Shown here in pieces: positions 2,289 to 45,290 of a DNA stretch of 64,000 nt. The notes beneath the pieces were generated by a model, which saw only the letters and a list, made by a program, of their open reading frames with translations, ran no database searches and was not told the origin of the DNA. Position numbers and translations under genes: made by a program. The stretch's first letter is position 1. Each line of letters opens with the position of its first letter. The DNA is taken from contig OY970378.1 of the NCBI GenBank assembly GCA_963718875.1, forward strand, positions 1,011,691 through 1,075,690, read 5' to 3'. The stretch is from Candidatus Parcubacteria bacterium. GTDB lineage: Bacteria; Patescibacteriota; Saccharimonadia; UBA4664; JBIOIQ01.

Positions 2289-3011
2289 TTAGCGGTACTC
2301 GGGGTTTTCAAAATCAAACCTGGCGCCGTCATCCCAACCTTTGCGCTGATTTCCGTAGGCCGGAATGCCGCCCGCCCGCTTGATCATATCGGCCAAGTGC
2401 ATCAGGTTCCATGTCATGAAAGTAGTGTTGCGGTTGGTGAAATCGTTTTCTGGCCCGCCTGATCCAGAGTCAAGGTATGAAGGTCCTGGACCAGCCTCCC
2501 CTACCCAGCCTGCGTCAGCTTGAGGAGGGATGGTATAGCCGAGGTGTTGTAAGCTGTACAGGGTATTCATGGTACAGTGCTTTATGCCGTCCTCGTTTCC
2601 TGTAATGAGGCTTCCTCCGACTTTACCATAAAAGGCGTATTGGCCGGCTTCATTTAAAATGCTACTGCAGGCATAAAGGCGTTCGATGACGCGCTTCATT
2701 ACCGAGCTGTTATCGCCCAACCAAATCGGCCCGCATAACACTAGTATATCGGCAGTCATAACTTTTTTATAAATATGCGGCCATTCATCTGTATCCCAGC
2801 CGTGCTCGCGCATATCAGGCCACACACCCGTGGCTATATCGTGGTCAATCGCGCGAATCAACTCTGTCTGTACACCGTGTTTATCCATAATGTCACGGCT
2901 GATCTTGATTAACCCTTCGGTATTACTGGCTTCGGGTGATTTTTTTAGGGTGGCATTTATGTATAAGGCTTTTAGATTAGAAAAGTCCCATTTATTTATT
3001 TGCTCAGCCAT
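2289..3011 (-). CDS. flavodoxin-like fold NAD(P)H-dependent FMN reductase family protein
   Basis: 240-aa ORF; ADILVLCGPIWLGDNSSVMKRVIERL resembles the FMN-reductase/flavodoxin-like core. Confidence 0.5.
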   Translation of the reverse strand: MAEQINKWDFSNLKALYINATLKKSPEASNTEGLIKISRDIMDKHGVQTELIRAIDHDIATGVWPDMREHGWDTDEWPHIYKKVMTADILVLCGPIWLGDNSSVMKRVIERLYACSSILNEAGQYAFYGKVGGSLITGNEDGIKHCTMNTLYSLQHLGYTIPPQADAGWVGEAGPGPSYLDSGSGGPENDFTNRNTTFMTWNLMHLADMIKRAGGIPAYGNQRKGWDDGARFDFENPEYR

Positions 3012-3044
3012 ATCCAGCTCCTTTTACTTATCTTATTATACGCC

Positions 3045-3095
3045 AGCAAAAAGAAAAGCCGCCGTCCGCTCTCGACCTTGCGGGTCGGGTGCGAA
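3045..3095 (-). terminator. Rho-independent terminator of the GC-rich membrane-protein gene
   Basis: minus-strand hairpin gccgccgt...acggcggc followed by UUUUCUUUUUG. Confidence 0.5.
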
Positions 3096-3112
3096 CGGCG
3101 GCGGGTACGCGA

Positions 3113-3622
3113 CTAGCGGTTCCGGTTTGCCGCGTGAACGATCTGAGCGGCGATGCCCACCCAGACCAAGACGACCAACACGGTGGCGAGCATGGCTGTT
3201 CCTCGCCTCACAGTGCCTCCGTCATAGAAGGGGGTCTCCTGGAAGCCGACGCCGTAGTTGGAAGCGTTGGCTACTGCCGTTCTTCCGGTGCTGGCCTGTT
3301 CCCAGACGGTGACGACCGGACGCTCCCCCGAGGGGATGTCCTTGATCAACATGTTGACGGTCAAGGCTTGCGGCTTGGTCGAGAGCCTTCCGACGTAGGA
3401 AACGGCGACCTTCTGGTAAGGCCCGTAGTAGCTGGAGTGCACCTGGTCGTCGACGCCTGCGACAGATCCCTGGATCGGGTCACCCCACAGACTGATCGAG
3501 TGGTCGCGTCCGTGCTCGCCGGCGATGTTGCCGATGGTGACGAGCGTGGTGATGATCAGAACGGTTGAGACGATTCCGGCCACAACCCACCCTATGATCC
3601 TCAATCCGTTATTGGTACGCAC
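3113..3622 (-). CDS. hypothetical membrane protein (N- and C-terminal TM helices) in a GC-rich islet
   Basis: 169-aa ORF; GTG start with GGAGG SD 7 nt upstream; own terminator; local GC clearly above the flanks. Confidence 0.5.
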   Translation of the reverse strand: MRTNNGLRIIGWVVAGIVSTVLIITTLVTIGNIAGEHGRDHSISLWGDPIQGSVAGVDDQVHSSYYGPYQKVAVSYVGRLSTKPQALTVNMLIKDIPSGERPVVTVWEQASTGRTAVANASNYGVGFQETPFYDGGTVRRGTAMLATVLVVLVWVGIAAQIVHAANRNR

Positions 3623-3767
3623 GTAAAGACCTCCGGTTCGGGGCGGGACGATCCCGCATCTGAACGTAGCCGGTGTATTATAGCAAAAAAGGTTATGTTT
3701 GTCAAGTCGCTCATTTTCTTAAGGTTATTGAGTCGGAGTGACATATAGGTGATGTGCGCGTACAATT

Positions 3768-4736
3768 TTGGTTATGGAACCGGTTTTACCTTCTATTAAG
3801 CCTGTAATTAAAAGTTCTCAACACGTGTTTCTTAATGAGGCTATGCTAATGGAGTTTTGTAAAACAGTGACGCCAGCCGAGCTTGAGGGAACAGAGTTTG
3901 AAGATAGCACTATCATTAAGGGGTTAACTGAAGAAGAATATATAGCCCTTTGTTTTGTTGATAGCTCGCTAAATTTTTGCTACTGGGGAGAGCCCAAGTG
4001 GACAATCCAGGTCGACGGCGCGGATTGGGACGGCAGTGCTGCCATGATTAGGGCTATTAAGCAGGCCGTGGAAAATGATTATCCCCTGCTTAGCGCCGAT
4101 TATTTAGCTACTATACCGCTAGCCGACCTCGGAACTATCTTCAAAGGCAATGTCACGATTCCGCTGTTTAACGAACGTCTGGAAATTTTACGGGCATTGG
4201 GGCGAATTACCAAAGAAAAGTTTGGAGGTCAGTTTAGTAATATTGTGCAAGCTGCCAACTGGGATTCACTGGCTTTAATTGATTTGATTGTACGCGATTT
4301 TCCGACAGTGTTTGACGATGCAGTCAACTACCATGGGCACAAGGTTGGTTTATATAAGCGCGCTCAACTGCTCCCGGTTCAGCTTCACGACCTGCATGGA
4401 TTGGGGTTGGTAGGAAGACAGATTAACGGTTTTGCCAGCGTTACAGCCATGGCCGATTATAAAATTCCGCAAGCGTTGCGCAAGTTTGGCATATTAGAAT
4501 ATACGACTGAACTGGCAGGCAAAGTTGATAATTTAGTCGAGCTACCGGAAGGCAGCGAGGAAGAGGTGGAGATCCGGGCAATGACAATTTGGGCTTGCGA
4601 GCTGATTGCGGGGGAACTAAACAAGCGTATGCCGGATGTTTATGCTGCTCGCGTAGGCGTTTTGTTTTGGTGGAAGGGCCAGGTTAAGTCGCCCGATGAT
4701 AAGCCTTATCACCGCACCCGGACTGTTTGGTATTGA
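3768..4736 (+). CDS. qng1: queuosine salvage protein Qng1 (DUF2419 / C9orf64 family)
   Basis: 322 aa; blocks KEKFGGQFSNIV, LYKRAQLL, AMADYKIPQALRKFGIL, EVEIRAMTIWACELI align with my recalled human C9orf64/QNG1 sequence. Confidence 0.7.
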   Translation: MVMEPVLPSIKPVIKSSQHVFLNEAMLMEFCKTVTPAELEGTEFEDSTIIKGLTEEEYIALCFVDSSLNFCYWGEPKWTIQVDGADWDGSAAMIRAIKQAVENDYPLLSADYLATIPLADLGTIFKGNVTIPLFNERLEILRALGRITKEKFGGQFSNIVQAANWDSLALIDLIVRDFPTVFDDAVNYHGHKVGLYKRAQLLPVQLHDLHGLGLVGRQINGFASVTAMADYKIPQALRKFGILEYTTELAGKVDNLVELPEGSEEEVEIRAMTIWACELIAGELNKRMPDVYAARVGVLFWWKGQVKSPDDKPYHRTRTVWY

Positions 4737-4744
4737 ATCTTATC

Positions 4745-4850
4745 TTGTCATTCCCTATCGGAAGCCAGCAAAATGATTTGTTTTATACAATCCGCGCTCC
4801 GGATAGGGAATCCAGGGCTTTATCTATTTTTATTTCTGGGTCCCTCTTCG
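4745..4850. repeat. modular palindromic intergenic repeat, gene-less copy (module 1 TGTCATTCCC-TATCGG..CCGGATA-GGGAATCCAGG, then module 2 TTTTTATTTCTGGGTCCC)
   Basis: same modules recur at 31372-31403/31700-31745, 32750-32936, 45167-45290 and 34364-34398. Confidence 0.6.
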
Positions 4851-5102
4851 AGTAAACCGTGCCACTCGCTTACCCTCCCACTCAACTTCTTCTATCCACT
4901 CGTCTACTGGACGGATAAACAACAACTTGTCGCCGTACTCAGCTCTATAAATAACGCAAACTGCATCAGTGCTTTCTTGAATGGCCAAGTTTAAGACGGT
5001 ATAAATCTGATTTTTATAATGATTATACTGTGCACCAACCTCGACTTGGTCGGCGGCTTGGGTGAGCATTTGTGATAATTCGATTTGCGATTTATGAGAC
5101 AT
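4830..5102 (-). CDS. DUF1653 domain protein
   Basis: 90 aa from ATG 5100-5102 (minus) with AAGGA SD; YKNQIYTVLNLA...VCVIYRAEYGDKLLFIRP is the DUF1653 pattern. Confidence 0.6.
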   Translation of the reverse strand: MSHKSQIELSQMLTQAADQVEVGAQYNHYKNQIYTVLNLAIQESTDAVCVIYRAEYGDKLLFIRPVDEWIEEVEWEGKRVARFTRRGTQK

Positions 5103-5205
5103 GAACGAGTTCCTTGTAATCAACAAATGACAAGTAACAATTTACAAACAATTTCAAAAAGTTAAGTTTAAAATTCCAAATCACTACCCCACACATAGAA
5201 CTACC

Positions 5206-5237
5206 GGTGACAGACTCTCCAATGAGAGTCTGTCACC
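5206..5237 (-). terminator. perfect 14-bp stem / 5-nt loop hairpin without U tract downstream of the HicB-like gene (possible U-less intrinsic terminator)
   Basis: ggtgacagactctc-caatg-gagagtctgtcacc; lies just 3' of the minus-strand ORF ending at 5255. Confidence 0.3.
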
Positions 5238-5254
5238 GCCGTGCAAGGGGTCAA

Positions 5255-5557
5255 CTAGTCGGCCGATCCGTCGTAGTTACCGGTCGATTCATCTTCTTCC
5301 TCTGTAACAGTGCGTCCGAGACGCCGCGCCAAGTCAGGCGAAATGGCGGTGCGTTGAACTTCACGGGCGCGGTTATCCCCACAGAACAACATACGCCCGA
5401 AGCTGGAGTAGAACAGCCCGCACAGTACGTGACCGGTAGCGTGGTCCAACCGGTCGGAGAGTTCGCTTACCCAGATTGCCCAGTCTGGCACTTCGGACTC
5501 TACAAGCCAGTGGGTATCTGACGAGTGATGGTATTCGACGCGATACTGAGTTGCCAT
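5255..5557 (-). CDS. HicB-like antitoxin-fold protein with C-terminal RHH-like segment (GC-rich islet)
   Basis: 100 aa; YRVEYHHSSDTHWLVESEVPDW resembles the HicB/UPF0150 N-terminal fold; TAISPDLARRLGRTV is RHH-like; SD GAGAGG; a 6-codon SD-preceded mini-ORF (MMTVIR) lies immediately upstream. Confidence 0.35.
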   Translation of the reverse strand: MATQYRVEYHHSSDTHWLVESEVPDWAIWVSELSDRLDHATGHVLCGLFYSSFGRMLFCGDNRAREVQRTAISPDLARRLGRTVTEEEDESTGNYDGSAD

Positions 5558-5830
5558 GATTGCCTCTCTAACGCGCCCTCACAGTGAGGGCTAGCGTATG
5601 ACGGTCATCATGGTTGCCTCCTTTGCAAGTTGTAGGGTACAGCTGACGGCCTAAGCGTAACAAGGACTACCGATTAACGCAAACTTTTCAGCGCGCATTC
5701 TTGATCAGGTGTAATCGCCACCAACAGGTGCACTTCTTGCTAGACTTGAGCTAATTTAGCATAAATGTTACGATGGGTCGGTTCTTTAGTATGAAACAGT
5801 AGTCACTAAATCCGCAAACGTCCCGTTTGC

Positions 5831-5888
5831 GACCCCATCGTCTAGCGGTTAGGACATCCCGGCATTAGCCGGGACAACCGGGGTTCGA
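5831..5888 (+). pseudogene. truncated tRNA-Glu-like gene fragment (5' acceptor strand, D arm, altered anticodon arm, 5' T stem; no 3' end)
   Basis: 26 nt plus 14 nt identical to the intact tRNA-Glu at 6149; anticodon arm replaced (TCCCGGCATTAGCCGGGA); no complementary 3' acceptor strand downstream. Confidence 0.5.
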
Positions 5889-5901
5889 GGTTACGAAGTC
5901 T

Positions 5902-6141
5902 ATGATCTATACAGCATATATTCTTTTGACAAGCACGGGGAGCTTTTATATCGGTCAGACCAATGATATGACCGATCGCTTAGTGAGGCACGCTCGAGGG
6001 GAATGCAGTTTCACAAAATCTAGGCTGCCTGTTACTCTTGTGTATAAGGAAGAATTTACTTCTAGATCTCAGGCTGTAACGCGAGAAAGACAACTCAAAT
6101 CTTGGAAAAGCACGCAAAGGCTTAAGGCTCTTATAAATTAG
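5902..6141 (+). CDS. GIY-YIG nuclease family protein (UPF0213 / YhbQ-like, 79 aa)
   Basis: YILLTSTGSFYIGQTNDMTDRLVRH...RERQLKSWKS has the GIY-YIG core; sits between the tRNA fragment and the intact tRNA-Glu. Confidence 0.7.
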   Translation: MIYTAYILLTSTGSFYIGQTNDMTDRLVRHARGECSFTKSRLPVTLVYKEEFTSRSQAVTRERQLKSWKSTQRLKALIN

Positions 6142-6148
6142 ATGGCAT

Positions 6149-6223
6149 GACCCCATCGTCTAGCGGTTAGGACACCAGGTTTTCATCCTGGCAACCGGGG
6201 TTCGATTCCCCGTGGGGTCACCA
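6149..6223 (+). tRNA. tRNA-Glu (anticodon TTC)
   Basis: 75-nt cloverleaf folded by hand; acceptor GACCCCA/TGGGGTC; anticodon loop TTTTCAT; T arm CGGGGTTCGATTCCCCG; encoded CCA. Confidence 0.9.
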
Positions 6224-6225
6224 AT

Positions 6226-6259
6226 AAAAATACCCGAGCTTGTCTCGGGTATTTTTATT
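6226..6259 (+). terminator. Rho-independent terminator after tRNA-Glu (bidirectional-looking)
   Basis: aaaaatacccgag-cttgt-ctcgggtattttt: perfect stem flanked by an A run and a T run. Confidence 0.6.
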
Positions 6260-6422
6260 GGTGAGTGCCGCAGGCACAGCGGACCTCGGTTGAGAGTGAG
6301 CGAAAGCTAACGAGGGGTTTGATAACGAGGAAAGCGCACACAAGTTTACTTGGGGCACATGCCAATGTTATACAAAAATTCCCCGTCGGGTCACTATTCG
6401 TTATCCCTTTTCTAAGCCATGC

Positions 6423-7367
6423 TTAAAGTAGTGGTGCGAGTTCCTGATTGCGCCTAAATAGCTCCTGCAAGTCGCCTAATCGTTCGTCAGGGTTAGTACA
6501 TAGCTCAGCTAAGGTATCTAGTAGCTCCCAATCCTTTTCACTCAACTCATCGTCCCTTGCCGACACAAGTCTCCAAGCGTCCCATTTTTCTCCGAACTCA
6601 AGTCGCACAAGATATGGTACAGCCTCAACTTTGTTCAATGACGCAAAGTCTCTCAGCAACTGACCTCGCACGAACCAAGCACCATACAGTGATTTCAAAC
6701 CGAACTCTTTTGGGTCTGCGCCAATACCGAACCTACTAGAACTTACCTCATCGTCACGCATCATATTCCAGGCAATACCAGCGTTTATAAAATGCTTATT
6801 ACTTACATTCAACGGGTCAAGCGATAGGAGCATTTGCTTGTACTCTGGCTCAATATCTGTCTCAGTATTAGCGTAGTTTTGGAGAACACTTTGCTGGAAC
6901 GGGTCAATCTGAGGGTCAATAGCTATCCAGGTATTACCATTCCAATACTCACAGACCCAATGGTCTTCATATAAGCCTGGTTTTGCAAGATACGTAGCAA
7001 ATCCGCACCTCGCTCGTGCTGGTATGCCTTTTGCCCTAAATAATGCCGTAGCCAGCACCGTAAACTCTCTGCAACAGGCAACCACTCGCTCTTCAGGGCT
7101 GCGTGGTAAAGCTAGCGATATACTGACTTCCCGCAGTTTTGCGGCTTGAGTAATAATTTCACTAGCACTAGGAGTACACTTAGTTCTTTTATGCTCTGGT
7201 TTCAAATGTATGCCGTAGCGCTCAATCCACATATCGTGCACTATTAAGCCTTGAGCAACTTGGAATATGACACGAGGGTCTGCAGAAAGCCAAGTAGTAA
7301 AATCCTTGAAATCGGACAGGTCAGTTAGGCTATCAGGCAGGGCATAATATTCTTGTGATAATTGCAT
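6423..7367 (-). CDS. transglutaminase-like cysteine peptidase superfamily protein
   Basis: 314 aa; CREFTVLATALFRAKGIPARARCGF ... DHWVCEYW match the transglutaminase-like Cys/His/Asp core. Confidence 0.6.
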   Translation of the reverse strand: MQLSQEYYALPDSLTDLSDFKDFTTWLSADPRVIFQVAQGLIVHDMWIERYGIHLKPEHKRTKCTPSASEIITQAAKLREVSISLALPRSPEERVVACCREFTVLATALFRAKGIPARARCGFATYLAKPGLYEDHWVCEYWNGNTWIAIDPQIDPFQQSVLQNYANTETDIEPEYKQMLLSLDPLNVSNKHFINAGIAWNMMRDDEVSSSRFGIGADPKEFGLKSLYGAWFVRGQLLRDFASLNKVEAVPYLVRLEFGEKWDAWRLVSARDDELSEKDWELLDTLAELCTNPDERLGDLQELFRRNQELAPLL

Positions 7368-7464: not shown

Positions 7465-7493
7465 TTGATTTTTTAGTAACTTTATACTATTAT
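7465..7493 (+). promoter_or_regulatory. sigma70-like promoter (TTGATT-17-TATTAT) for the GC-rich ORF 7529-8122
   Basis: near-consensus -35/-10 with 17-nt spacer about 35 nt upstream of the start codon. Confidence 0.35.
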
Positions 7494-7528
7494 GCACACA
7501 CTCAATCCCCAGACACCAGGAGAGCACC

Positions 7529-8122
7529 ATGCACAGCTTCATCGACTTGCATTGCGGATCTCGGCTATTCGTCGAGGTGGAACTTGACGAATCCATCCGA
7601 ACGGCCCAGGCTCGTGAACGCATCGAGATCATCTTGCTCGATCGGCAAATCGGCCGTCTTTTCCCTACCCTGAAGGGGTTCATGTACTACCCGCCCGACG
7701 AGCGGTGGAATGTGACCAGAATCGTGGAGCGCCTGCACAACCTCCTGAAGGAGCTGTTCGGGGACGACTACACGGTTTCCTACTGCAAGGACCGCGAGAG
7801 CGACGACATCATCATGCGCGAAGCTGATGGGTCCGAGCACGTCGTTGAGCCCAGCCGGCCACTAGGTCGCTTCGGCGCGACCAGGAGGCTTGTTATGCCG
7901 GCTAGTATCGAAGAGTACTTGGACCGTATTGCCAGAGAAGCAGCCGATTACTTCGACCGAGGTGATAGAGGAGCGGCTATCAGCTGCGTTCTGTCTCTGC
8001 TGCAAAGTCATCCCGACACTCAATCCATCGGGCGCACTTCTTCAACTTTGCCTCTCCTATTGGCGGGATGGGAAGGAGGTAGAGACAGGTTCATCGAAAC
8101 GATTACCGGGTTCCAGCCTTGA
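7529..8122 (+). CDS. hypothetical protein (GC-rich islet)
   Basis: 197-aa ORF; SD AGGAGAG 4 nt before ATG; local GC much higher than the flanks; possible terminator-like hairpin near 8150-8185. Confidence 0.45.
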   Translation: MHSFIDLHCGSRLFVEVELDESIRTAQARERIEIILLDRQIGRLFPTLKGFMYYPPDERWNVTRIVERLHNLLKELFGDDYTVSYCKDRESDDIIMREADGSEHVVEPSRPLGRFGATRRLVMPASIEEYLDRIAREAADYFDRGDRGAAISCVLSLLQSHPDTQSIGRTSSTLPLLLAGWEGGRDRFIETITGFQP

Positions 8123-8216
8123 CCGCGTTCATCGCGTTCCCCTGCTCCGATCGAAGCTTACGGCTTCGGCCGGAGCTTCTTTCGTTATGCCCCTCGTGGA
8201 ATTGGTTGTGTCGAAA

Positions 8217-16340: not shown

Positions 16341-16397
16341 GAAAGTCCGACTTTAATCTTTGTTGATTGCTGCAATCCGGATTTAAAGTCGGACTTT
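16341..16397. repeat. paired nested-palindrome repeat R1 (AAAGTCCGACTTTAATC ... GATTTAAAGTCGGACTTT)
   Basis: two AAGTCNGACTT palindromes about 39 bp apart in inverted orientation; family also at 20176, 21216 and 41359. Confidence 0.6.
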
Positions 16398-20175: not shown

Positions 20176-20232
20176 TGAAGTCGGACTTCAATCTTTGATA
20201 ATTTAAGCAATATTGATTTGAAGTCTGACTTC
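20176..20232. repeat. paired nested-palindrome repeat R2 (GAAGTCGGACTTCAATC ... GATTTGAAGTCTGACTTC)
   Basis: same family as R1, R3 and R4; inner segment TTAAGCAAT shared with R3. Confidence 0.6.
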
Positions 20233-20408: not shown

Positions 20409-20681
20409 ATGGATAAAAAACACTACAAGATTCGCGTCACCGGTAAAGTTCAAGATGTTGGCTTTCGTTCCAGCGCCAAGCGCCGGGCCGAAGAATTGGG
20501 CTTACATGGTTTTGCACGCAACGAGCCAGACGGAACGGTTTATGTTGAAGTTGAAGGGTCAGCTGATCAAGTTGAAAAGTTTTTAGAGTGGTGCCAAAAT
20601 GGCTCGAACGAAGCAATCGTAGAAACTGTTGACGTGACTGATCACCCCCCGGTTGGGCATGAGGGGTTTGAGCGGCTGTAA
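20409..20681 (+). CDS. acyP: acylphosphatase
   Basis: 90 aa; VTGKVQDVGFRSSAKRRAEELGLHGFARNEPDGTVYVEVEG matches the acylphosphatase signatures. Confidence 0.75.
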   Translation: MDKKHYKIRVTGKVQDVGFRSSAKRRAEELGLHGFARNEPDGTVYVEVEGSADQVEKFLEWCQNGSNEAIVETVDVTDHPPVGHEGFERL

Positions 20682-20716
20682 AAAAACTGCCCGCCCCAAG
20701 ACTTCCGGGGCGGGCG
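20680..20716. terminator. bidirectional intrinsic terminator (perfect 9-bp GC stem); the U tract is on the minus-strand side
   Basis: GCCCGCCCC-aagacttcc-GGGGCGGGC preceded by an A7 run; sits between convergent acyP and the 20749-21126 gene. Confidence 0.55.
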
Positions 20717-20748
20717 TTCTGACAATTGGCCTCTGTCACTCATCTGAT

Positions 20749-21126
20749 TCAGCTGGGTGTTTCTTGCCTGCCACGGTAGATCAGCCAGTCGAGCTTGCCC
20801 TGCAAGAGAGGAATCTCTAGCAAGATACAGAGGCAGCCGATAACTATCCAAAATGCGCCGTCCAGACCAAGCGCTACGATCAGCAGGGCCACAGAGGCAA
20901 GGGAAAATGCCACCGCAGTAGTGCGTGTAAGCGGAAGCTCCGACAGCGCTACCAGAATAGGATCGGCCATCCCCGACATCACGACTGGGAGCAGCATCGT
21001 GCAGATCAAGATGACGACTAACAGGCCGGACCACCAGATACTCTCGAAGATGGGCGCGATGGCTACTGCCATAACAGCTGCGATAACGCCGGCCGACTTA
21101 CGGCGGAGAGCCTGCATATCGTTCAT
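20749..21126 (-). CDS. hypothetical membrane protein (GC-rich islet)
   Basis: 125 aa, three or four hydrophobic helices; SD AAGGAAG 6 nt before ATG; GC-rich relative to the flanks. Confidence 0.45.
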   Translation of the reverse strand: MNDMQALRRKSAGVIAAVMAVAIAPIFESIWWSGLLVVILICTMLLPVVMSGMADPILVALSELPLTRTTAVAFSLASVALLIVALGLDGAFWIVIGCLCILLEIPLLQGKLDWLIYRGRQETPS

Positions 21127-21215: not shown

Positions 21216-21272
21216 AGAAGTCAGACTTTAATATTCGCCGCATTAAGCAATCCAGATTTGAAGTCTGACTTC
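21216..21272. repeat. paired nested-palindrome repeat R3 (AGAAGTCAGACTTTAAT ... GATTTGAAGTCTGACTTC)
   Basis: same family; lies between two minus-strand genes. Confidence 0.6.
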
Positions 21273-24583: not shown

Positions 24584-25654
24584 CTAGAAAATTTCTACCG
24601 GAAGGCCTGTAAAACTAGCGTAGCGATTAGCTGCTTCAGCTATAGCTTTCGATGGGTGTTCGGCCGATACATCAAATGGTTTGAGTTTAATCTTGATTTT
24701 GCTTTTAGTAGCAGTCTTTTTCCAAGTTCCCACAACTTGGCCGTCTACTAAAATGGTGGCTAAAAACATGCCGTTGCCGCCAGGGACAACTTTTTGGCTA
24801 TAAGCTGGCGCTAGAACTGCCGAACGATCTTTATACCCCAGCAGATATTCATCAAAGCCAGGTAATAAATAAATCGGTTCTGATGAAACGGGTCGGGGCT
24901 GACGGCGTGATAAGAAATATTGACTGTCGTCGATGGTTTCGGGCGTGATGCTTGAGCCGGCTAACGCGATGCCGGCACGGGCATCAACGGCCGTCAATCC
25001 CGACCACCACATAAAATCTTGAACTGTGGCGGGACCATGACTGCTAAAATACGTAGTCGTTAATTTAGCTAACGCCTCCTCCCGACTTATCTGAGGCTGT
25101 GGCGGCAACCAATCCTCCAACCATACGAAGGTAGGCTGTTTGCCCTCATTGGGACCAAAGCAGATTAAGCCATCCTGAGACAATTGCCATAAGATGTGGT
25201 AACCGCGCTGGTTAGCTGTAGCTATGCCAGCTTGCTCTAAAGAGGTTAAAAGCTGGGCCCGAGTGACTACTCTTCCAACTTGAAGCGCGGCCGCAAGGAC
25301 CTCTTTGGCCTTACCGAAAACTTTATCATTAAGACTCAAGTTTTTCCGACGACTGGCCGCTCCGGCAATCACACGCGGAGTCAGCAACTTAAGCATCCAG
25401 CGCACATCCTGAGGTGCCACAAAGTGCAATGTGCCGCGCATAGGCCAGGTACGAATGAGCTCCCTATCGGCCACAGCCTGCTCAATGTCGGCATCGGTGA
25501 CGCCAATTGGCAGGCGTAATCCGATTGACCATTTAGCGCCGGGGTAATCTTGCGCCTGTATCGCACCCATCCAAGCCACTATCTCAGCTGGGGTAGTAAA
25601 TTGGGAATGGCTGATTTGCTGATTCGACAATCTCATCTCGGAGATTTTGTTCAT
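24584..25654 (-). CDS. winged-helix DNA glycosylase of the YcaQ/AlkZ (HTH_42, DUF1006) family
   Basis: 356 aa; N-terminal RLSNQQISHSQF...AIQAQDYPGAKWSIGLR contains the Q-hydrophobic-Q catalytic-type motif of AlkZ-like crosslink-repair glycosylases. Confidence 0.6.
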   Translation of the reverse strand: MNKISEMRLSNQQISHSQFTTPAEIVAWMGAIQAQDYPGAKWSIGLRLPIGVTDADIEQAVADRELIRTWPMRGTLHFVAPQDVRWMLKLLTPRVIAGAASRRKNLSLNDKVFGKAKEVLAAALQVGRVVTRAQLLTSLEQAGIATANQRGYHILWQLSQDGLICFGPNEGKQPTFVWLEDWLPPQPQISREEALAKLTTTYFSSHGPATVQDFMWWSGLTAVDARAGIALAGSSITPETIDDSQYFLSRRQPRPVSSEPIYLLPGFDEYLLGYKDRSAVLAPAYSQKVVPGGNGMFLATILVDGQVVGTWKKTATKSKIKIKLKPFDVSAEHPSKAIAEAANRYASFTGLPVEIF

Positions 25655-29255: not shown

Positions 29256-29308
29256 TGGAGGGCCGTCCGTGACTCCCCGGCTAGTGGGCCTGGGTAAACT
29301 TCTCGTCT
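29256..29308. repeat. 14-nt duplication of the tRNA-Lys 3' end (TGGAGGGCCGTCCG) fused to conserved motif copy 1 (TGACTCCCCGGCTAGTGGGCCTGGGTAAACTTCTCGTC)
   Basis: direct repeat of the tRNA 3' end about 90 bp from the tRNA; motif also at 37451-37487 and, diverged, at 63892-63927. Confidence 0.55.
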
Positions 29309-29358
29309 CGATGGACCCTTTCCAGTGAAAAAGCCCCACTTTCGTGAGGCGTTTTCAC

Positions 29359-29536: not shown

Positions 29537-30109
29537 TTAAGCTTTGCGGCCGGTCATGGCTAGCATTTTTGTTTGGGCATCAGAGTCCTCTGGCACTTCT
29601 ACGATAGGCCCGAAGAGTCCCTTGGAACGAGCACCTTCTGCCATTGGTCCAAAAATTTTATTAGCGAGGGCTACTAAGCTGGGGTCGATTTTGGTATCTG
29701 CGCCAATAGCTTTGGCCAGGTCCCAATTATGGACGGCTATGTCACTGGTTATTTGCTCGCAGTAATCAGCCGCCGATGTATCACCCATCGAGAGGTGAAC
29801 TGTTCGCTCGAGCGCCCCAGGCTGGCTCAAGGTCTCCACGGCAGAGTCAGCTGCAACTGTGGCTGCCATAACTGGATCATTACCCAAAAGGTCCCCGTCG
29901 AATTTGTCGGCAACTTCTGCGATTGTTTTTCCCTCAACCATGGGCTTTATCCACATCAACTCGTTAACCATATGATTAACCAGCTCTCGGGTATCCCAAT
30001 CTGTGTCTGGCGTTGCCGCATTCCACTGGTCGGCTTTGACAGAAGAAACCAGCCTTTTAAATTGATCCGTAGCCAGTTTAAGTAACGCGAGCTCATTCAT
30101 AAACATCAC
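29537..30109 (-). CDS. DinB/MDMPI_N-like domain protein (TIGR03086-like, tentative)
   Basis: 190 aa; N-terminal WNAATPDTDWDTRELVNHMVNELMW fits the mycothiol-maleylpyruvate-isomerase N-terminal-like fold pattern. Confidence 0.45.
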   Translation of the reverse strand: MMFMNELALLKLATDQFKRLVSSVKADQWNAATPDTDWDTRELVNHMVNELMWIKPMVEGKTIAEVADKFDGDLLGNDPVMAATVAADSAVETLSQPGALERTVHLSMGDTSAADYCEQITSDIAVHNWDLAKAIGADTKIDPSLVALANKIFGPMAEGARSKGLFGPIVEVPEDSDAQTKMLAMTGRKA

Positions 30110-31404: not shown

Positions 31405-31689
31405 TTAGAAATCCTCTGCTAAATCTTTCCAGTTCGGGTTACTCTCTTCAATTAATCGCAGCTTCCAAGCTCTCTTCCAATGCTTAATTTGTTTTTCGCG
31501 AAGCAATGCGGAGTTCACGTCATTGGTTTGTTCAAAATAAACCAGCATATGAACACTATTTTCCTTGGTGAACCCATCTATGAGATTGTTTTTATGCTGG
31601 TGCGCCCTAGTTTGCAGATTATTCGTCATGCCAACATAGAGAGTCCCATTGCGCTGACTAGCCATTATATAGACGTAATAAGTTTTCAT
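31405..31689 (-). CDS. GIY-YIG nuclease family protein (UPF0213/YhbQ-like, 94 aa)
   Basis: YVYIMASQRNGTLYVGMTNNLQTRAHQH...REKQIKHWKR GIY-YIG core; flanked on both sides by the repeat modules. Confidence 0.7.
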   Translation of the reverse strand: MKTYYVYIMASQRNGTLYVGMTNNLQTRAHQHKNNLIDGFTKENSVHMLVYFEQTNDVNSALLREKQIKHWKRAWKLRLIEESNPNWKDLAEDF

Positions 31690-31699
31690 TTGTTTATAT

Positions 31700-31745
31700 T
31701 ATACTTTTTTCTTTTCTGGGTCCCCGCCTTCGCAGGGACGACAAC
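31700..31745. repeat. repeat module 2 (TTTTTCTTTTCTGGGTCCCC-GCCTTCGCA-GGGAC) abutting the 5' end of the GIY-YIG gene
   Basis: reverse complement GTCCCTGCGAAGGCGGGGAC matches module 1 ATCCCTGCGTAGGCGGGGATC (roughly 18/20). Confidence 0.6.
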
Positions 31746-32749: not shown

Positions 32750-32936
32750 TGACATCCCCTATCGGCCGTTCGAGGCTCTGAGGAGCCCTCAGGCTCTCGA
32801 AGAGAAGCCAGTTATGGCTGAGTGCTTACGTAATCTGCGCTCCGGATAGGGGATCGAGGCAAAATTATCCAACTGTTTGTTTTGCTTATTTTTTTGTTTT
32901 TTTTATTTCTGGTTCCCCGCCTTCGCGGGGATAACA
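32750..32936. repeat. modular palindromic repeat, gene-less copy with long internal loop (TGACATCCCCTATCGG ... CCGGATAGGGGATCGAGG ... TTTTTTTATTTCTGGTTCCCCGCCTTCGCGGGGA)
   Basis: module 1 and module 2 both present; perfect mini-palindrome CCCCGCCTTCGCGGGG. Confidence 0.55.
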
Positions 32937-33025
32937 AGAATGAACCGTGCAAAAGTTATGTTTGATGTTTGAAAGCTGGCGCTTGAATATTGTCTGTATC
33001 CTTGCTTCTTGGGTCTTGTACCTTG

Positions 33026-35765: not shown

Positions 35766-36002
35766 TTAGTGAATTAGGCGAATAATTTCCTGATTGGTAA
35801 GTGTCTTGGTGCCGTATTCCTCCTTCAGGAGTTTGATCATACAATTGACGTAGGCCGTCTTTGAGCTATATACACAGTCGGAGGCCAAAATCTCCAGGCG
35901 TTCAAAATTGGCCCCACAGGACTCAAACCTTTTTGGATCTGTACACAGGCGGATATTTGATTGTAAATGTGAAACCTCGCCCGAGAGCGAGGTTTCACTC
36001 AA
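35766..36002 (-). CDS. hypothetical small protein
   Basis: 78-aa ORF, no recognisable motif. Confidence 0.25.
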   Translation of the reverse strand: MSETSLSGEVSHLQSNIRLCTDPKRFESCGANFERLEILASDCVYSSKTAYVNCMIKLLKEEYGTKTLTNQEIIRLIH

Positions 36003-36027
36003 ACGGGCGAGGTGGGCGCTGGCTTGG

Positions 36028-36423
36028 CTAGCTGTTGGCTGAGGGTGCTCCGGGTCGGTCGCTTCGGCCTTCGAAGAACGAGCCCACCTTGTTCTGCTTG
36101 CGCGTCTTCTTGCTCCCGATGTTCATCCATACCTTCGTCGGGCAGCCGACAACTTCTCTTGCGATCCGATCCGCAATCCTGTTGACCGCGTTAGGGGCTG
36201 CTTTGATGCGATCTGGTTGGTAGTACACCTCGAGCCTGATAACGCAGTGCACCCGTCGGTTGATACCAGTGGGGTAGACCGCCGGGATGACGCCGTCGAC
36301 CGGATCGATAACCGGCAGCGCCTTGCAAGCTGTCTCCTCGGCGAGAATCTGGTCGATAGCAGCCACTTGGTCATCGGTAAAGTTGGGTGATCCGAATCCC
36401 GGATAGTAATCGGCGTACGGCAC
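36028..36423 (-). CDS. hypothetical protein (GC-rich islet)
   Basis: GTG start with AGGAG SD; GC-rich; no family recognised. Confidence 0.35.
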   Translation of the reverse strand: MPYADYYPGFGSPNFTDDQVAAIDQILAEETACKALPVIDPVDGVIPAVYPTGINRRVHCVIRLEVYYQPDRIKAAPNAVNRIADRIAREVVGCPTKVWMNIGSKKTRKQNKVGSFFEGRSDRPGAPSANS

Positions 36424-37342: not shown

Positions 37343-37756
37343 TAGCGTCGTAGGGCACTACTTGGTGCACATGTTGGGGTGGACGCAACCCGTTTTATAA
37401 GCGCAGCCGTTCCGGTAATTTGAAATTGAAGTGGCTGGTGCGCCTGGAGGGACTCCCCGGCTCGGTGGCCGGGGTAAACTTCTCGTCCCTATGATTGTTA
37501 TCTGGTGCCCCTAATCGGACAGCTTTCAAACCCAGGTTTCCATGACGCGATCAGTATTCTGTATCATTCCACGCTGGAAGCCTAAGGCCCGGTACGACAT
37601 CGATTACACCTGCTTACACAAGCTACAAAAAGAAACCTCTTTGTCGTTATACAGCGGGCGGGCTCTGACGAACATTGGCCGAACGTCCAGAAATTGCTTG
37701 TTTGTTGCCGTTGCGTCCTGGAACTTCCGCCAGGCGGCGTGATCGAGCCTGGAAAA

Positions 37757-38137
37757 TCAGGCTGCTCGCTCTGATGAGACTGCTTTGGCCGTTGCAATAA
37801 CTGCATCTCGAGCTGCTTCAAGATTAGCGCTAGCCTCTTCAAGAGCTTTCGCGGCAGCATCGCTGGCTTCTCTAGCCTGAAGATACTCTTCCATGGAGGC
37901 CCTGGTTTCACTTGTGTGACTTTCTACAAGTGCGGGATCAATACCTAGATCGCGTGCGGCATCAACAGCAAGCGCCTCTCTCTGCATATTCCATACGGCA
38001 TCATAGTCCTTGCCTTCTTGGGTAGATCGTTCCCAAGGCGTATCAGTGGCTCGTGCAACGTCTAGCGACTCAGCCGCTCTGCTTGCATTGTCCATTGTTT
38101 CTTTTGATATGTCTTCGTACCCTTGTGACTCGCCCAT
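37757..38137 (-). CDS. hypothetical acidic alpha-helical protein (islet cargo)
   Basis: 126 aa from MGESQGYEDISKE; GC-rich. Confidence 0.4.
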   Translation of the reverse strand: MGESQGYEDISKETMDNASRAAESLDVARATDTPWERSTQEGKDYDAVWNMQREALAVDAARDLGIDPALVESHTSETRASMEEYLQAREASDAAAKALEEASANLEAARDAVIATAKAVSSERAA

Positions 38138-38359
38138 ATGAAAAAGTTCCTTCTTTAAAGCATATAGGATCAATGTTACGCCAAACACTCATTTACACAA
38201 GTTGTTTGATCAAGTGGCCTTAAACGCAAGGCGCCTCCCAGAACTGGCGAGTAGCCTTGCCTGGGAGGCGAATAAGGACGATGGTGACGGGACTGGCTGG
38301 TGACGCCTGTCATGCGACAAGCTCGTCAAGTGACCAGGGCGAGGCGAGGAAATTGGCGA

Positions 38360-38794
38360 TCAGCTACTCGATGGCTTGAGTGCAGAGGGATCAGTGGAAG
38401 CAATAGACGCCTCCAGTAGCCTGCGCAGGGAATCCGGGGTTTCGGGCCCGAATAGCTTGTCGAGCGTTCCTGCTTCCTCCACATTCGCAGCAAACCCTCC
38501 TTCGATCAGTTGACGATGCCGCTCCGCACGCACATCTGGAGGTTCGGGAAGGTAGATGTCACAGTCCCAGTGACCGTCTTCCATAGCATCTTCTCTGAAC
38601 GAGGAGTCTTCTTCGCCGAAGTACTTGGACAAGTCTGTCACTCGGAAGACCAGGTCTTGATCTCCACAATAGAACACATGCCCCGGTCTGACTTGCCAGT
38701 GGGCTTGCAAATCAGTATCGGCTCGGCACAGCTCGATGTACTCGTCCGTGGCCCAAACAGGCCGTTCCTGAAGGTCATGGCCTGAATTGCTCAC
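38360..38794 (-). CDS. hypothetical acidic protein (islet cargo)
   Basis: GTG start 10 nt after a GGAGG SD; GC-rich. Confidence 0.4.
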   Translation of the reverse strand: MSNSGHDLQERPVWATDEYIELCRADTDLQAHWQVRPGHVFYCGDQDLVFRVTDLSKYFGEEDSSFREDAMEDGHWDCDIYLPEPPDVRAERHRQLIEGGFAANVEEAGTLDKLFGPETPDSLRRLLEASIASTDPSALKPSSS

Positions 38795-39290
38795 TTTTGA
38801 CGAGCCTCCTCCGCATCCGGGACTTCCGGTGTTGCGACAAGCCAAGCGCTAAGGACTAGTACTCGGGTTGTCGCAGCGGAGGAATAGGCTACTTATACTG
38901 AAATAAGTTGAGTTAGGCAAGCACAAGCGTAACGCAGGCTCCTACTATGCGTCTGTCTTCTTGTCCTCTGCTTGGACTTGCTCCCTTGCTAGTTCGATCA
39001 GGGCCGCGACGAACAAATCGACCCTCGGCTCTTTCTTCTTAACTCCAGTTACTCTGACGCGGCGCTGCGGACGGGGATTGGGTTGCTTTATTGGTACATC
39101 TCATTAATTACCGCGATTGTCGCGCCGACACGAGATATCTGCAAGAGCAAAAAACGGCATTAATGTTGACAATTTGAAACAACCAGAGCATAATATTGTC
39201 CACGAATTGGCATCTCCCGTTGAGTTTCTTTAGCAGGCTGCCGCAATGCAGCAGTCGCCTGCTTCCCGGAACTCAACGCTAGGAGAACTG

Positions 39291-39629
39291 ATGCGTTTCA
39301 TTGACCTGTACAACGTGAGCGTGGAACGCTACTGGACGGCACAAGCCACTCGAGAAGACGGCTCAGCCAACAGCTTCATCAACGTAGCCACCGATGTGGC
39401 CGAAGATCTTGTGACCACTCTCGAAGACTCTGCCGAGCTGCTGGCCGACATTGTCAGGAACTGCCCACCTCCAAACCTTGGCGAGCTCGAAGCCAGCAGC
39501 TGGATCGAGTTCGTCGTATTTCTTTTCTGGAACATGGCCGGCGAACGCGCCAGAACAAACGATCGCATCACGGCCGAGGATGATCGACGCGATCGCATCG
39601 AGGCCCTTCAGAGGGGATCCAGGGCCTAA
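39291..39629 (+). CDS. hypothetical protein (islet cargo)
   Basis: AGGAGA SD 4 nt before ATG; followed by a 9-bp GC hairpin at 39649-39681. Confidence 0.45.
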   Translation: MRFIDLYNVSVERYWTAQATREDGSANSFINVATDVAEDLVTTLEDSAELLADIVRNCPPPNLGELEASSWIEFVVFLFWNMAGERARTNDRITAEDDRRDRIEALQRGSRA

Positions 39630-39648
39630 CGGCCGACAGACTCGCACT

Positions 39649-39690
39649 GGCCCTGCATGCTCACATCGAGTGTGCAGGGCCGTTTCATTA
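39649..39690 (+). terminator. hairpin GGCCCTGCA-n15-TGCAGGGCC with a weak U tail
   Basis: perfect 9-bp stem immediately after the stop of 39291-39629. Confidence 0.3.
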
Positions 39691-39918
39691 AGTATTGTTT
39701 GCAAGAAAAAAATGAATCGACATTGAACCACACTGCGAGAAGTTGAATCACTAGGCAACATTACAGACTTCAAGCGGACCTATCGAAAGGGGATAGAGCA
39801 ACTTCTTACTTAATTGCCTGACATTTTGCTGCTCACGACAAGTGCCCCTAAATACAAAAAAGAGACTTTGCTAAGTCTCTTTTCTATACTTTTGTGTAAT
39901 TACACAGGTGTTTTTCGA

Positions 39919-39994
39919 TGGTGCGCCTGAAGGGACTCGAACCCCCGACACCCAGATCCGGAATCTGGTGCTCTATCCACTGAGCTACAGGCGC
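39919..39994 (-). tRNA. tRNA-Arg (anticodon CCG)
   Basis: 76-nt cloverleaf: GCGCCTGTAGCTCAGTGGATAGAGCACCAGATTCCGGATCTGGGTGTCGGGGGTTCGAGTCCCTTCAGGCGCACCA. Confidence 0.9.
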
Positions 39995-41358: not shown

Positions 41359-41423
41359 GAAGTCAGACTTCAAATCTAGACCACCTAAGCATGGTTATTA
41401 AAGTCTGACTTTTAAATCAAGCA
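41359..41423. repeat. paired nested-palindrome repeat R4 (GAAGTCAGACTTCAAATC ... AAAGTCTGACTTTTAAATC)
   Basis: same family; immediately downstream of murA. Confidence 0.55.
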
Positions 41424-43711: not shown

Positions 43712-43754
43712 TTAGTAATCATAACAATAAACACTCGCGGTCGGAAAGTCCTGG

Positions 43755-43788
43755 CAGCAGGACGAGGCGCGAGCGCCCCGCCCTGCTG
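43755..43788 (-). terminator. GC hairpin CAGCAGG...CCTGCTG downstream of the IMPCH-domain gene copy 1 (no U tract)
   Basis: near-identical hairpin recurs at 44467-44495 after copy 2. Confidence 0.3.
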
Positions 43789-43802
43789 TTTGATGTCGCA
43801 CT

Positions 43803-44361
43803 TCAGCCCAGCTGTTCCAACACCCACGCCGCAACCCCAGCTGCATAGTTGCGGCAGTACTTCACTGCCTTGCCCGTGAGATAAACGCGCATTCCTCCGG
43901 AAAGCACGTTGTCGTGTGCCTGAAGATCTGACAGCACGGCGGAGTAGTTCTCGGGGTCAACCACAATGAATGGACCATCTTCGTGGTTCTTGATGCACCC
44001 CCAAATCATACTTGGGCCACCGACGTCGATACCGGCGAAAGAAGAAGGAGGGGTGGGATAGAGATTGCAAACCACTGCGTCTATATGACCGTAGCCTGCT
44101 GCAGCCAGCTCTGCCACATCCTCCTCCACGGATCTCCGAGCCAGAATGGGTCCGTGGATCCCGGGGTGCAAGGTCTTAACTCGACCTCCCATCATCTCTG
44201 GCTGACCAGTGACCTGCGCGACTGAGGTGAAGTCGATGCCCGCTTCAGCCAGAAAATCTCCTGTACCGCCACTGGCCACGATCTCCCAGCCCAGCTGCTT
44301 GAGCCGTTTTAGCGAAGACCCGAAGGCCTTTGGTGTTTGAGACGGAAATCAGAACGCGCAT
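43803..44361 (-). pseudogene. stand-alone PurH N-terminal IMP cyclohydrolase (MGS-like) domain gene, copy 1, frameshifted
   Basis: [20 protein letters not shown] reads in one frame and [15 protein letters not shown]...GGRVKTLHPGIHGPILARR...IDAVVCNLYP in the next; the shift lies in a TTTT/AAAA run at 44307-44310; no AICAR formyltransferase domain follows. Confidence 0.5.
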
Positions 44362-44466
44362 ACGACGTGCTCCTTCTGGAGAAATGGCCGGAACAGTTTC
44401 CGACGGGGTAATTATGGGTTCAAGGATAAAACTAAGCAAGCGTAAGCGATTAATAAGTGTTGGGAA

Positions 44467-44495
44467 GCAGGACGAGGCGCGAACGCCCCGTCCTG
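44467..44495 (-). terminator. GC hairpin CAGGACG...CGTCCTG downstream of the IMPCH-like gene copy 2 (no U tract)
   Basis: paralogous to the hairpin at 43755-43788. Confidence 0.3.
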
Positions 44496-44507
44496 GTGGG
44501 CTGTCGA

Positions 44508-45068
44508 TCAGTGCGGAGGTGGTCCCATCTCTCTAAACAGATCAAGGACAGATTGCGAGTACAGCGTTGTGTACTCGTACGTCTTAAGCGCCAGATTCCA
44601 CCTTGTGTAATCAGACAGCTGCCCTCCGTTGCTGCCTAACTCATCGATCACACTGGGATAGTCACCTGGATCTACTAGCACAACCACATGTCGCCAGTTG
44701 GCTGCTGCCGTCCAAAGGAGGGCATGCCCTCCATGATCTCCTCCGTCAAGACCAGGCTTCCTTAAATTGCAAACGACCCAGTCGATTGGACGAGAAAGGA
44801 TTGCCTTCAACCAAGCCATGTCGGACTCGACGTCACGGTGAGCTCCAATAGCAGAAAAGATGCCTGGATCTACTGCCCTCCGCCTTCTACCACCTTCAAC
44901 TTCCTCGAAGAGCAGAGCTGGTTTGTATTCACGGATGGGCCGACGAGTTGTACCCAAGGCTTCCTTAGTGCCTCCGCCGGCCATGAGGGTCAGTCCGAGT
45001 GCTTCGAGCGTGTCTGCCAGCTCTTCCAAGCCAGTCTTGTCATCAACGCTCAACAGTGCATACGCCAT
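44508..45068 (-). CDS. stand-alone PurH-N (IMPCH/MGS-like) domain protein, copy 2, degenerate catalytic motifs
   Basis: ALLSVDDKTG, GGGT and IDWVVCNL conserved, but the GGRVKTLHP motif is replaced by GGRRRRAVDP; GC-rich. Confidence 0.45.
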   Translation of the reverse strand: MAYALLSVDDKTGLEELADTLEALGLTLMAGGGTKEALGTTRRPIREYKPALLFEEVEGGRRRRAVDPGIFSAIGAHRDVESDMAWLKAILSRPIDWVVCNLRKPGLDGGDHGGHALLWTAAANWRHVVVLVDPGDYPSVIDELGSNGGQLSDYTRWNLALKTYEYTTLYSQSVLDLFREMGPPPH

Positions 45069-45166
45069 GCGAGTCGCTCCTTGTCGAAAGAAAAGGCCGG
45101 GCTGTCCGGCGGAGCTATTATGCTTGTTAAAGCCGTTATTTGCAAGCTTAAGCTTTTTTTTCTATC

Positions 45167-45290
45167 TGTCATTCCCTACCGGAAACCAAACTCCACCATT
45201 GCCTAGTTTGGTGCTCCGGATAGGGAATCCAGGCATTTTTAGCTTTCACATTTTTATTTTCTTTTCTGGGCCCCCTATCCGGAGCGCAGA
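45167..45290. repeat. modular palindromic repeat, gene-less copy (TGTCATTCCCTACCGG..CCGGATAGGGAATCCAGG ... TTTTCTTTTCTGGGCCCCCTATCCGG)
   Basis: module 1 and module 2 both present, with an inner hairpin ACCAAACT..AGTTTGGT. Confidence 0.55.

Follow-up and report, generated by a model that had tools for sequence, protein, structure and literature searches.

GC-rich, transcript-sized gene islets of foreign composition in a small bacterial genome, one of them an apparently old and fast-evolving locus

We analyzed a 64-kb stretch (hereafter the window) of contig OY970378.1 from Candidatus Parcubacteria bacterium, and in particular a short segment rich in guanine and cytosine (GC) at positions 3058-3673, the focal islet or islet 2. 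The original prediction was that this and similar islets were acquired horizontally from a high-GC donor. The window sits within a contig of 1,189,924 bp and has an overall GC content of 47.1%; no rRNA gene was found within it. Relatives of its queuosine-salvage and transglutaminase-like genes come mostly from metagenome-assembled genomes that belong to CPR (candidate phyla radiation)/Patescibacteria and DPANN, and it also encodes a type IV pilin-like protein. The host is thus probably a small-genome bacterium of CPR type. The focal islet comprises one open reading frame (ORF) with its 5' untranslated region (UTR), a Shine-Dalgarno sequence (SD) and a terminator, and the locus is laid out as follows.

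2289-3011, reverse strand: FMN_red gene, 48.8% GC, which has a -10 element of its own; the gene next downstream of the focal islet, conserved in two relatives (L047 and L039)
3058-3673, reverse strand: focal GC-rich islet (islet 2), 62.8% GC, one transcript of 5'UTR, ORF and terminator; z = 5.1
3060-3105, reverse strand: focal terminator hairpin, GC-rich, with a U tract; kept in L047 and L039
3113-3622, reverse strand: focal ORF of 169 residues, with predicted transmembrane (TM)-beta-TM architecture, a GGAGG SD and a GC content at third codon positions (GC3) of 0.80
3677-3705, reverse strand: consensus sigma-70-type promoter just outside the GC-rich segment, with TTGACA, a 17-nt spacer and TG-n-TATAAT (extended -10), matching at 12 of 12 positions

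Repeats of the form TATTATA...GCAAAAA near 3025 and 3678 were considered as target-site duplications and rejected. They are the -10 elements of the FMN_red and islet promoters and are conserved in the relatives.

We segmented the window with a two-state hidden Markov model (HMM) on GC content, in which the background state had 46.1% GC. Segments called GC-rich were 3058-3673 (62.8%), 7507-8176 (57.8%), 20645-21115 (58.0%), 35975-36343 (61.2%), 38225-38882 (57.6%), 39233-39682 (59.1%), 43736-45115 (56.3%) and 56986-57538 (59.7%); outside this list, 5200-5640 has 56.5% GC and 1-180 has 56.1%. Every GC-rich segment lies 2.8-5.1 standard deviations above host windows of equal length and beyond their maximum. 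The predicted GC-richer segments are therefore confirmed: the HMM picks up eight of the nine (56-63% GC against the 46.1% background), and the ninth is 5200-5640, at 56.5%. Their predicted coordinates mostly held, except that 5640-5830 is not GC-rich and that the left third of 37436-39900 is not either (ORF 37757-38137 has 49.5% GC and a GC3 of 0.38).

Each islet is one small transcription unit, and its GC-rich borders match the transcript borders. An AT-rich promoter lies outside, while a GC-rich leader with an SD, the ORF and a GC hairpin lie inside; islets 3, 4 and 6 share this layout with the focal islet. Motifs of the AGGAG/GGAGG type precede 10 of 11 islet ORFs, compared with about 7 of 26 host ORFs (host starts taken from the longest ORF), in agreement with the strong SDs that had been described. 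Three hairpins reported without a U tract are likewise real, at 5206-5237 (15 bp), 43755-43788 (15 bp) and 44467-44495 (12 bp). They fold with z-scores of -3.5 to -4.6, and no U run of the kind found in canonical intrinsic terminators follows their stems. In islets 2 and 4, by contrast, the terminators end in U-rich tails.

The frame pattern of the focal ORF is that of a real coding sequence with high-GC codon use. Its GC content at the first, second and third codon positions is 0.57, 0.46 and 0.80 (host GC3 is 0.40-0.56), its third positions are 0.52 C and 0.28 G, and the fraction of C endings among pyrimidine-ending (NNY) codons and of G endings among purine-ending (NNR) codons is 0.90 and 0.89. 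For the pooled islets these fractions are 0.71 and 0.64, compared with 0.42 and 0.44 in the host, and the ratio of AAG to AAA is 26:2 in islets versus 206:375 in host genes. Translational selection in the host was considered as the cause of the high GC3 and rejected, because the putatively well-expressed genes for SHMT and peroxiredoxin (Prx) show no G preference (0.43 of NNR codons end in G) and lack the bias for AAG over AAA.

The islets are foreign beyond GC content. The GC-normalised dinucleotide distance (delta*) of the pooled islets to the host is 0.161, with a null of 0.031 +/- 0.010 (z = 12.9), and the focal islet lies at a distance of 218 from the host, where host segments lie at 97 +/- 29. 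The deviation of each islet from the host correlates with that of the other islets (r = 0.67-0.95), i.e. they share a common direction, and the islet deviation correlates with that of soil contigs of 70-75% GC at r = 0.88. The nearest signatures to the islets are those of L040 and L130 (both ~54% GC, and both carrying relatives of window genes) and L116 (61% GC), at delta* of 57-61 as against 161 for their own host. The focal islet thus has the atypical codon use and signature expected of a recent acquisition.

For the islets as a class, we lean modestly towards lateral origin from higher-GC genomes as the best explanation. Besides composition, this reading draws on the orphan status of the islet ORFs, on signs of gene flow among neighbouring genes and on a 2.5-kb island at a tRNA gene, which is listed here together with two related features.

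37436-39938, reverse strand: island anchored at tRNA-Arg(CCG), 2.5 kb, with the orphan ORFs 37757-38137, 38360-38794 and 39246-39629
37455-37493, forward strand: 38-nt module abutting the copy of the tRNA-Arg 3' end; a second copy at 29275-29313 abuts a copy of the tRNA-Lys 3' end
5831-5888, forward strand: truncated tRNA-Glu paralogue with its break in the T loop, upstream of the intact tRNA-Glu at 6149-6223

The island is bounded by direct repeats of 20 nt (37436-37455 and 39919-39938) that are identical at 19 of 20 positions, where 0 matches are expected by chance. The first repeat is a copy of the tRNA-Arg(CCG) 3' end, from the T loop to CCA, and the second belongs to the intact tRNA-Arg at 39919-39994. 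The predicted tRNA anchoring is therefore real here: a tRNA gene stands at one end, a copy of its 3' part stands at the far end, and the direct repeat of 37436-39918, of attachment-site (att) type, is a classic integration scar. P4-type att sites span the T loop to the 3' end of a tRNA gene and are used by tyrosine recombinases. The tRNA-Arg island resembles tRNA-targeting integrative elements in its 20-nt repeat, which starts from the T loop, and in the tRNA left intact at one end, but differs from them in that no integrase or excisionase was found in its 2.5 kb. The three ORFs match no Pfam, NCBIfam or PHROGs family and there is no other long ORF; the island would therefore be a decayed remnant. 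Its composition is uneven, with 38225-38882 and 39233-39682 at 58-59% GC beside the ORF 37757-38137 described above.

A further difference from tRNA-targeting elements is that the same 38-nt end module recurs beside a tRNA-Lys repeat that encloses just 83 bp. There, 29256-29275 copies the 3' end of tRNA-Lys (CTT) at 18 of 20 positions, again with 0 matches expected by chance. Both 29256-29313 and 37436-37493 thus consist of a 20-nt tRNA 3'-end copy (Lys-CTT and Arg-CCG) followed by the module CCCCGGCTnGnGGnCCnGGGTAAACTTCTCGTC, which has no match in Rfam or in viral contigs. Some family of tRNA-targeting elements may have this module as its conserved end, or the module may be what is left of such an element. 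A structured RNA made of tRNA end plus module was considered and rejected, since Rfam gave no match and one copy of the two folds no better than its own shuffles. The truncated tRNA-Glu matches the intact gene identically over a 5' part of 26 nt and shares with it a further 14 nt that reach the T loop; it differs from it in the anticodon arm and has no 3' end. Between the two lies a 79-residue ORF (5902-6141), a GIY-YIG-like candidate by motif reading.

The age of the focal islet can be judged from L047 and L039, two short contigs (<3 kb each) assembled independently from other samples. At 77-85% DNA identity, L047 aligns over the beginning of the queuosine-salvage gene, the promoter, the 5'UTR hairpin, the SD, the terminator hairpin and FMN_red. 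L039 aligns from the promoter onwards, with the 5'UTR hairpin, SD, terminator and FMN_red. Some stem positions of the terminator hairpin differ on both sides across these contigs. Between the lineages, FMN_red is 89-92% identical at the protein level, with a nonsynonymous divergence (dN) of 0.05-0.07, whereas the focal protein is 33-38% identical, with a dN of 0.65-0.82, and its coding sequence cannot be aligned by blastn. The focal coding sequence evolves about ten times faster than its neighbour. L039 also holds a homologue of the islet 3 ORF, with an amino acid identity of ~47-52% according to the alignment used. It is located upstream of the focal homologue, at a distance of a few hundred bases.

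A recently acquired gene should be missing at the orthologous site in relatives. Both contigs carry a homologous gene there, with promoter, UTR, terminator and FMN_red kept, which speaks against a fresh acquisition of the focal islet. Because the locus is conserved across near-saturated synonymous divergence, the focal islet is neither recent nor specific to this genome; as judged from these alignments, it appears to be an old, positionally conserved locus, older than the split of the three lineages.

Several observations weigh against a lateral origin, foremost at this locus. Identity at fourfold-degenerate sites in FMN_red is 0.33-0.46, where random expectation is 0.28-0.33, so that these sites are near saturation, and the islet ORF has diverged about as much at its synonymous sites. 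Despite this saturation, the GC3 of the islet ORF is 0.80, 0.76 and 0.69 in the three lineages. A gene acquired once and slowly ameliorating should have decayed far more than the islet has, as FMN_red did in the window, where its GC content at fourfold sites (GC4) is 0.53. The high GC of the focal islet cannot easily be read as a decaying relic. The comparators are moreover two deeply diverged lineages, with none closer for presence or absence; a scan of genome contigs with the queuosine-salvage protein gave no relative above 52% identity, and for the region of the tRNA-Arg island no syntenic relative was retrieved. Finally, the searches gave no donor homologue of any orphan ORF, and the islets neither contain nor adjoin an integrase or another mobility gene. 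Since no orphan ORF has a donor homologue, lateral origin rests on composition and on one integration scar.

These points bring in an alternative, namely that the islets, or islets 2 and 3 at any rate, are fast-evolving genes passed down vertically, in which a local force keeps GC high, such as GC-biased gene conversion at recombining hypervariable loci or selection on the transcript. Orthology of the focal locus in three lineages, with promoter, UTR, terminator and neighbour conserved, fits this view, as do the GC3 of 0.69-0.80 and an AAG:AAA ratio of 11:0 across the L047 and L039 orthologues at near-saturated synonymous divergence in both islet ORF and neighbour. On L039 the GC-rich genes (homologues of islets 3 and 2, and FMN_red) are interleaved with a lower-GC ORF, and in the window the coincidence of GC-rich borders with transcript borders points the same way. 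The transglutaminase-like gene keeps a low GC4 (0.31-0.38) in a contig of 54% GC, so gene-specific GC levels that persist across genomes do exist here. However, the effect is very large, about 35 GC3 points, and the values reported for biased gene conversion in bacteria are of a few points. GC1, GC2 and the dinucleotide signature are also shifted, towards high-GC genomes. One member of the family, on L040, shows no GC enrichment (49.6% GC compared with 53.9% in the rest of the contig), the tRNA-Arg island bears a true integration scar, and the background GC of L039 and L047 is known from less than 3 kb each. On balance we regard this alternative as unlikely, though worth some weight.

The contrast between flanks and coding sequence could also arise if the focal cassette (the coding sequence with or without the terminator) was repeatedly overwritten, through homologous recombination in its conserved flanks, by divergent alleles from relatives of higher GC, as in a flexible island of the "replacement" type on a miniature scale. 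The flanks at 77-85% DNA identity beside an unalignable coding sequence, and the gap in dN between islet ORF and neighbour, agree with such allele replacement. Between the window and L039 the islet ORF has no residual synonymous signal where FMN_red has it, and there are contigs of ~54% GC that hold relatives of window genes and come nearest to the islets in composition. Contigs built from short reads of the same run break off at islets 2 and 4 or within them, as could be expected from strain heterogeneity. On the other hand, the terminator 3' and the leader 5' of the coding sequence are conserved, so replacement would need breakpoints placed precisely at the ends of the ORF. Between the window and L047 some synonymous signal survives in the islet ORF, as it does in the neighbour, no close allele was found among 1.84 billion representatives, and the contig breaks may reflect coverage alone. 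We hold allele replacement to be decidedly unlikely.

The short-read contigs in question are Logan contigs of the source run (ERR12037361); they end where the islet 2 ORF has its 3' end and start within the islet 4 ORF. These ends could reflect strain heterogeneity or drops in coverage. Assembly chimeras, in which foreign reads were joined into the contig, had been named as a condition that would undo the prediction, and sharp compositional borders alone could hint at them. However, the host-islet junctions are reproduced in L039, L047 and the Logan contigs, with host-islet-host arrangement in each, and the borders fall at a promoter, a terminator and an att repeat. Chimeric joining is scarcely credible.

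Returning to lateral origin, we looked for possible donors. Apart from the PurH-like pair of islet 8, no islet ORF matches Pfam, NCBIfam or PHROGs. Searches with tblastn against 50,697 phage and 72,556 plasmid records, which include many actinobacterial ones, gave no homologue, and scans of viral contigs with islet proteins 2, 3, 4, 7b and 7c and with the 38-nt module returned nothing meaningful. Among 1.84 billion representatives the focal protein has 6 distant homologues (31-39% identity), and those whose contigs were fetched lie on contigs of 48-54% GC, not on high-GC ones. The closest homologues of the focal protein thus do not fall in an identifiable donor taxon, nor in phages or plasmids.

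Had the islets come recently and directly from a high-GC actinobacterial host, or from phages or plasmids of that host, this would account for the focal GC3 of 0.80 (C3 0.52, G3 0.28), for lysine being encoded almost entirely by AAG, for the dinucleotide correlation of r = 0.88 with soil contigs of 70-75% GC and for the hairpins without U tracts. The neighbouring AlkZ-like, MDMPI_N and FMN_red genes belong to families common in Actinobacteria. Against it stand the failure of the islet ORFs to match the phage and plasmid collections (tblastn) or PHROGs, NCBIfam and Pfam, the confinement of the focal family to 48-54% GC contigs, and a focal locus that would predate the split of three lineages. 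Among solved structures, the PurH-like gene is not closest to the Mycobacterium tuberculosis enzyme. Such a transfer is very improbable. No finding singles out Actinobacteria or a partner organism, and the donor cannot be named. Of the predicted horizontal acquisition from a high-GC donor, compositional foreignness, one tRNA att repeat and the links of FMN_red to high-GC genomes stand; recency and an actinobacterial partner are not supported. The AlkZ-like DNA glycosylase gene (24584-25654) and the MDMPI_N (DinB-like) gene (29537-30109, between tRNA-Arg(TCG) and tRNA-Lys) have slightly raised GC, 50-55%.

Other genes of the window are linked to genomes of differing GC. FMN_red is 70-78% identical (protein) to genes on soil metagenome contigs of 62-76% GC, and its low-GC copies cluster apart; none of these high-GC contigs carries a relative of the focal protein. 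This pattern suggests that the gene crossed between phyla long ago or else that the enzyme is exceptionally conserved. The transglutaminase-like gene (6423-7367) is 82-84% identical in L130:9866-10819 and L131:1422-2366, with no shared synteny. There is no comparator for islet 4 because these relatives sit in unrelated contexts. With its GC4 of 0.31-0.38, the gene is AT-rich even within the 54% GC contig, an "AT islet" there. Together, the two patterns imply that genes move among community genomes of differing GC. In L040, whose contig of ~54% GC holds a distant relative of the focal protein, pyrF and pyrD (4595-6491) have 62% GC, so that genome shows compositional mosaicism too. Gene movement among genomes of differing GC agrees with what has been reported for Patescibacteria, where genomic islands occur and gene transfer is common, mostly within the phylum (PMC12455944).

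The window islets resemble the acquired islands of Patescibacteria and other bacteria (PMC12455944) in their atypical GC, codons and dinucleotides and in their accessory or orphan cargo, and one of them adjoins a tRNA gene and is flanked by direct repeats. Unlike such islands, they are 0.4-1.4 kb long, mostly hold one gene and have no mobility genes, and the position of the focal islet is conserved across deeply diverged lineages instead of being strain-specific.

Flexible genomic islands of the "replacement" type, in marine and other bacteria, hold highly divergent, surface-related alleles at a fixed locus. The focal locus is similarly fixed, with conserved flanks and an extremely divergent gene for a predicted envelope protein, but it is a single small gene, its alleles are still recognisably homologous and the GC elevation is common to all of them.

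An AlphaFold model of the focal protein (confidence score, pLDDT, 84) shows a helix at residues 4-46, five strands and a helix at 136-168. Both helices are predicted TM helices with the five-stranded beta domain between them, an architecture like that of DUF3592 (PF12158) proteins, in which a small beta barrel stands between an N-terminal and a C-terminal TM helix. Foldseek matched DUF3592-labelled viral proteins in BFVD at E-values of 1e-4 to 2e-4, although the TM-scores were low (0.36-0.38 for these matches, 0.36-0.44 overall), and gave no significant match in the PDB. Unlike DUF3592 proteins, the focal family has no match to the Pfam model, neither at E <= 0.01 for the window protein nor at E <= 1 for seven family members. 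A role in cell-surface interaction would be a guess.

The remaining islets are the following.

5200-5640, reverse strand: islet 3, with a 100-residue ORF (5255-5557), the hairpin at 5206-5237 (15 bp, no U tract) and a leader
7507-8176, forward strand: islet 4, with an orphan ORF of 197 residues (7529-8122), an AGGAG SD and a U-tailed hairpin (8150-8177)
20645-21115, reverse strand: islet 5, with an orphan ORF of 125 residues and predicted multiple TM segments (20749-21126)
35975-36423, reverse strand: islet 6, with an orphan ORF (36028-36423) and a GC hairpin (35975-36013)
43736-45115, reverse strand: islet 8, with two tandem PurH N-terminal-like (MGS/IMP cyclohydrolase) genes, 33% identical to each other
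56986-57538, reverse strand: islet 9, with small overlapping candidate orphan ORFs, including a Cys/His-rich ORF of 63 residues (57358-57549)

The ORF of islet 3 had been called HicB-like; we rejected this identity, since no HicB model, nor any other family of Pfam, NCBIfam or PHROGs, matched it at E <= 0.01. Islet 4 has a promoter-like site at 7465-7493, outside the islet. Islet 5, together with an acylphosphatase-like gene (a candidate from reading the sequence), is bracketed by copies of a 56-nt repeat at 20177-20232 and 21217-21272. This repeat, which contains two 13-nt palindromes (GAAGTCnGACTTC), also occurs at 16342-16397 and 41398-41415 and may be an operator, a terminator or an element like repetitive extragenic palindromes (REP). 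A second family of short intergenic repeats (AATCCGCGCTCCGGATAGGGAATCCAGG ... CTATTTTTATTTCTGGGTCCC) lies at 4789-4844, 31682-31744, 32832-32937 and 45206-45274, where one copy flanks islet 8.

Islet 8 adjoins a purL-purQ-purB-purK-purE-purC-purM-purN cluster. Its first gene (43803-44361) has a 1-nt frameshift near 44285, outside any homopolymer run, and may be a pseudogene; the second (44508-45068) has an intact reading frame and a degenerate KTLHP motif. A GC hairpin follows each copy, and the two hairpins are 89% identical. The first copy matches PF02142 at 2.7e-10 and the second PF01808 at 3.2e-9, with matches to PurH structures in the PDB at 1e-25, so that the MGS-like domain and the start of the AICARFT_IMPCHas region are both present. 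Against the NCBIfam models for full-length PurH the copies score 129 and 94 bits, where the cut-offs are 528 and 402, and cover model residues ~1-195. No AICAR transformylase domain was seen in the window despite the nearly complete purine operon, within which ORF 53683-54636 has no Pfam match. Islet 8 thus resembles stand-alone IMP cyclohydrolases and PurH N-terminal proteins (e.g. ForH, PDB 6nko), in that its genes match the MGS domain and the first ~190 residues of PurH and adjoin a purine operon. It differs in that the AICAR transformylase domain is missing, one copy is frameshifted and the other is without KTLHP.

Taken as acquired, the islets would be accessory genes that keep a higher-GC composition in a small genome of ~47% GC. 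These small ORFs, often encoding a membrane protein or an orphan, would be expressed from AT-rich promoters of host type that lie outside the islets. At least one islet (37436-39918) would have integrated site-specifically into tRNA-Arg(CCG), in the part that runs from the T loop to the 3' end. Not every acquisition would be recent, and the donors could lie outside the Actinobacteria. The focal islet would be an old fixed locus, with a consensus promoter and a predicted DUF3592-like envelope protein with two TM helices.

The islets are of an already known feature type, compositional islets in a mosaic genome, with one property that is unexplained: the focal locus is GC-rich and hypervariable at one position across deep divergence. 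We consider it improbable, and would give it little weight, that they form a distinct class of transcript-delimited, promoter-less-looking, GC-rich orphans whose codon use stays of the high-GC kind at fixed loci, even between lineages with saturated synonymous sites. If they did, this would imply a locus-specific process that raises GC, either strong biased gene conversion or constant re-import by natural transformation at hypervariable envelope loci, and the source of the re-imported DNA could be the organisms on which these small-genome bacteria live. In its present form the finding amounts to ordinary compositional mosaicism and says nothing about a particular partner organism. If the islets were imported, they would mark a gene pool that is flexible and probably related to the cell surface, in a small-genome bacterium of which little is known, and would show how foreign ORFs become expressed from host-type promoters.

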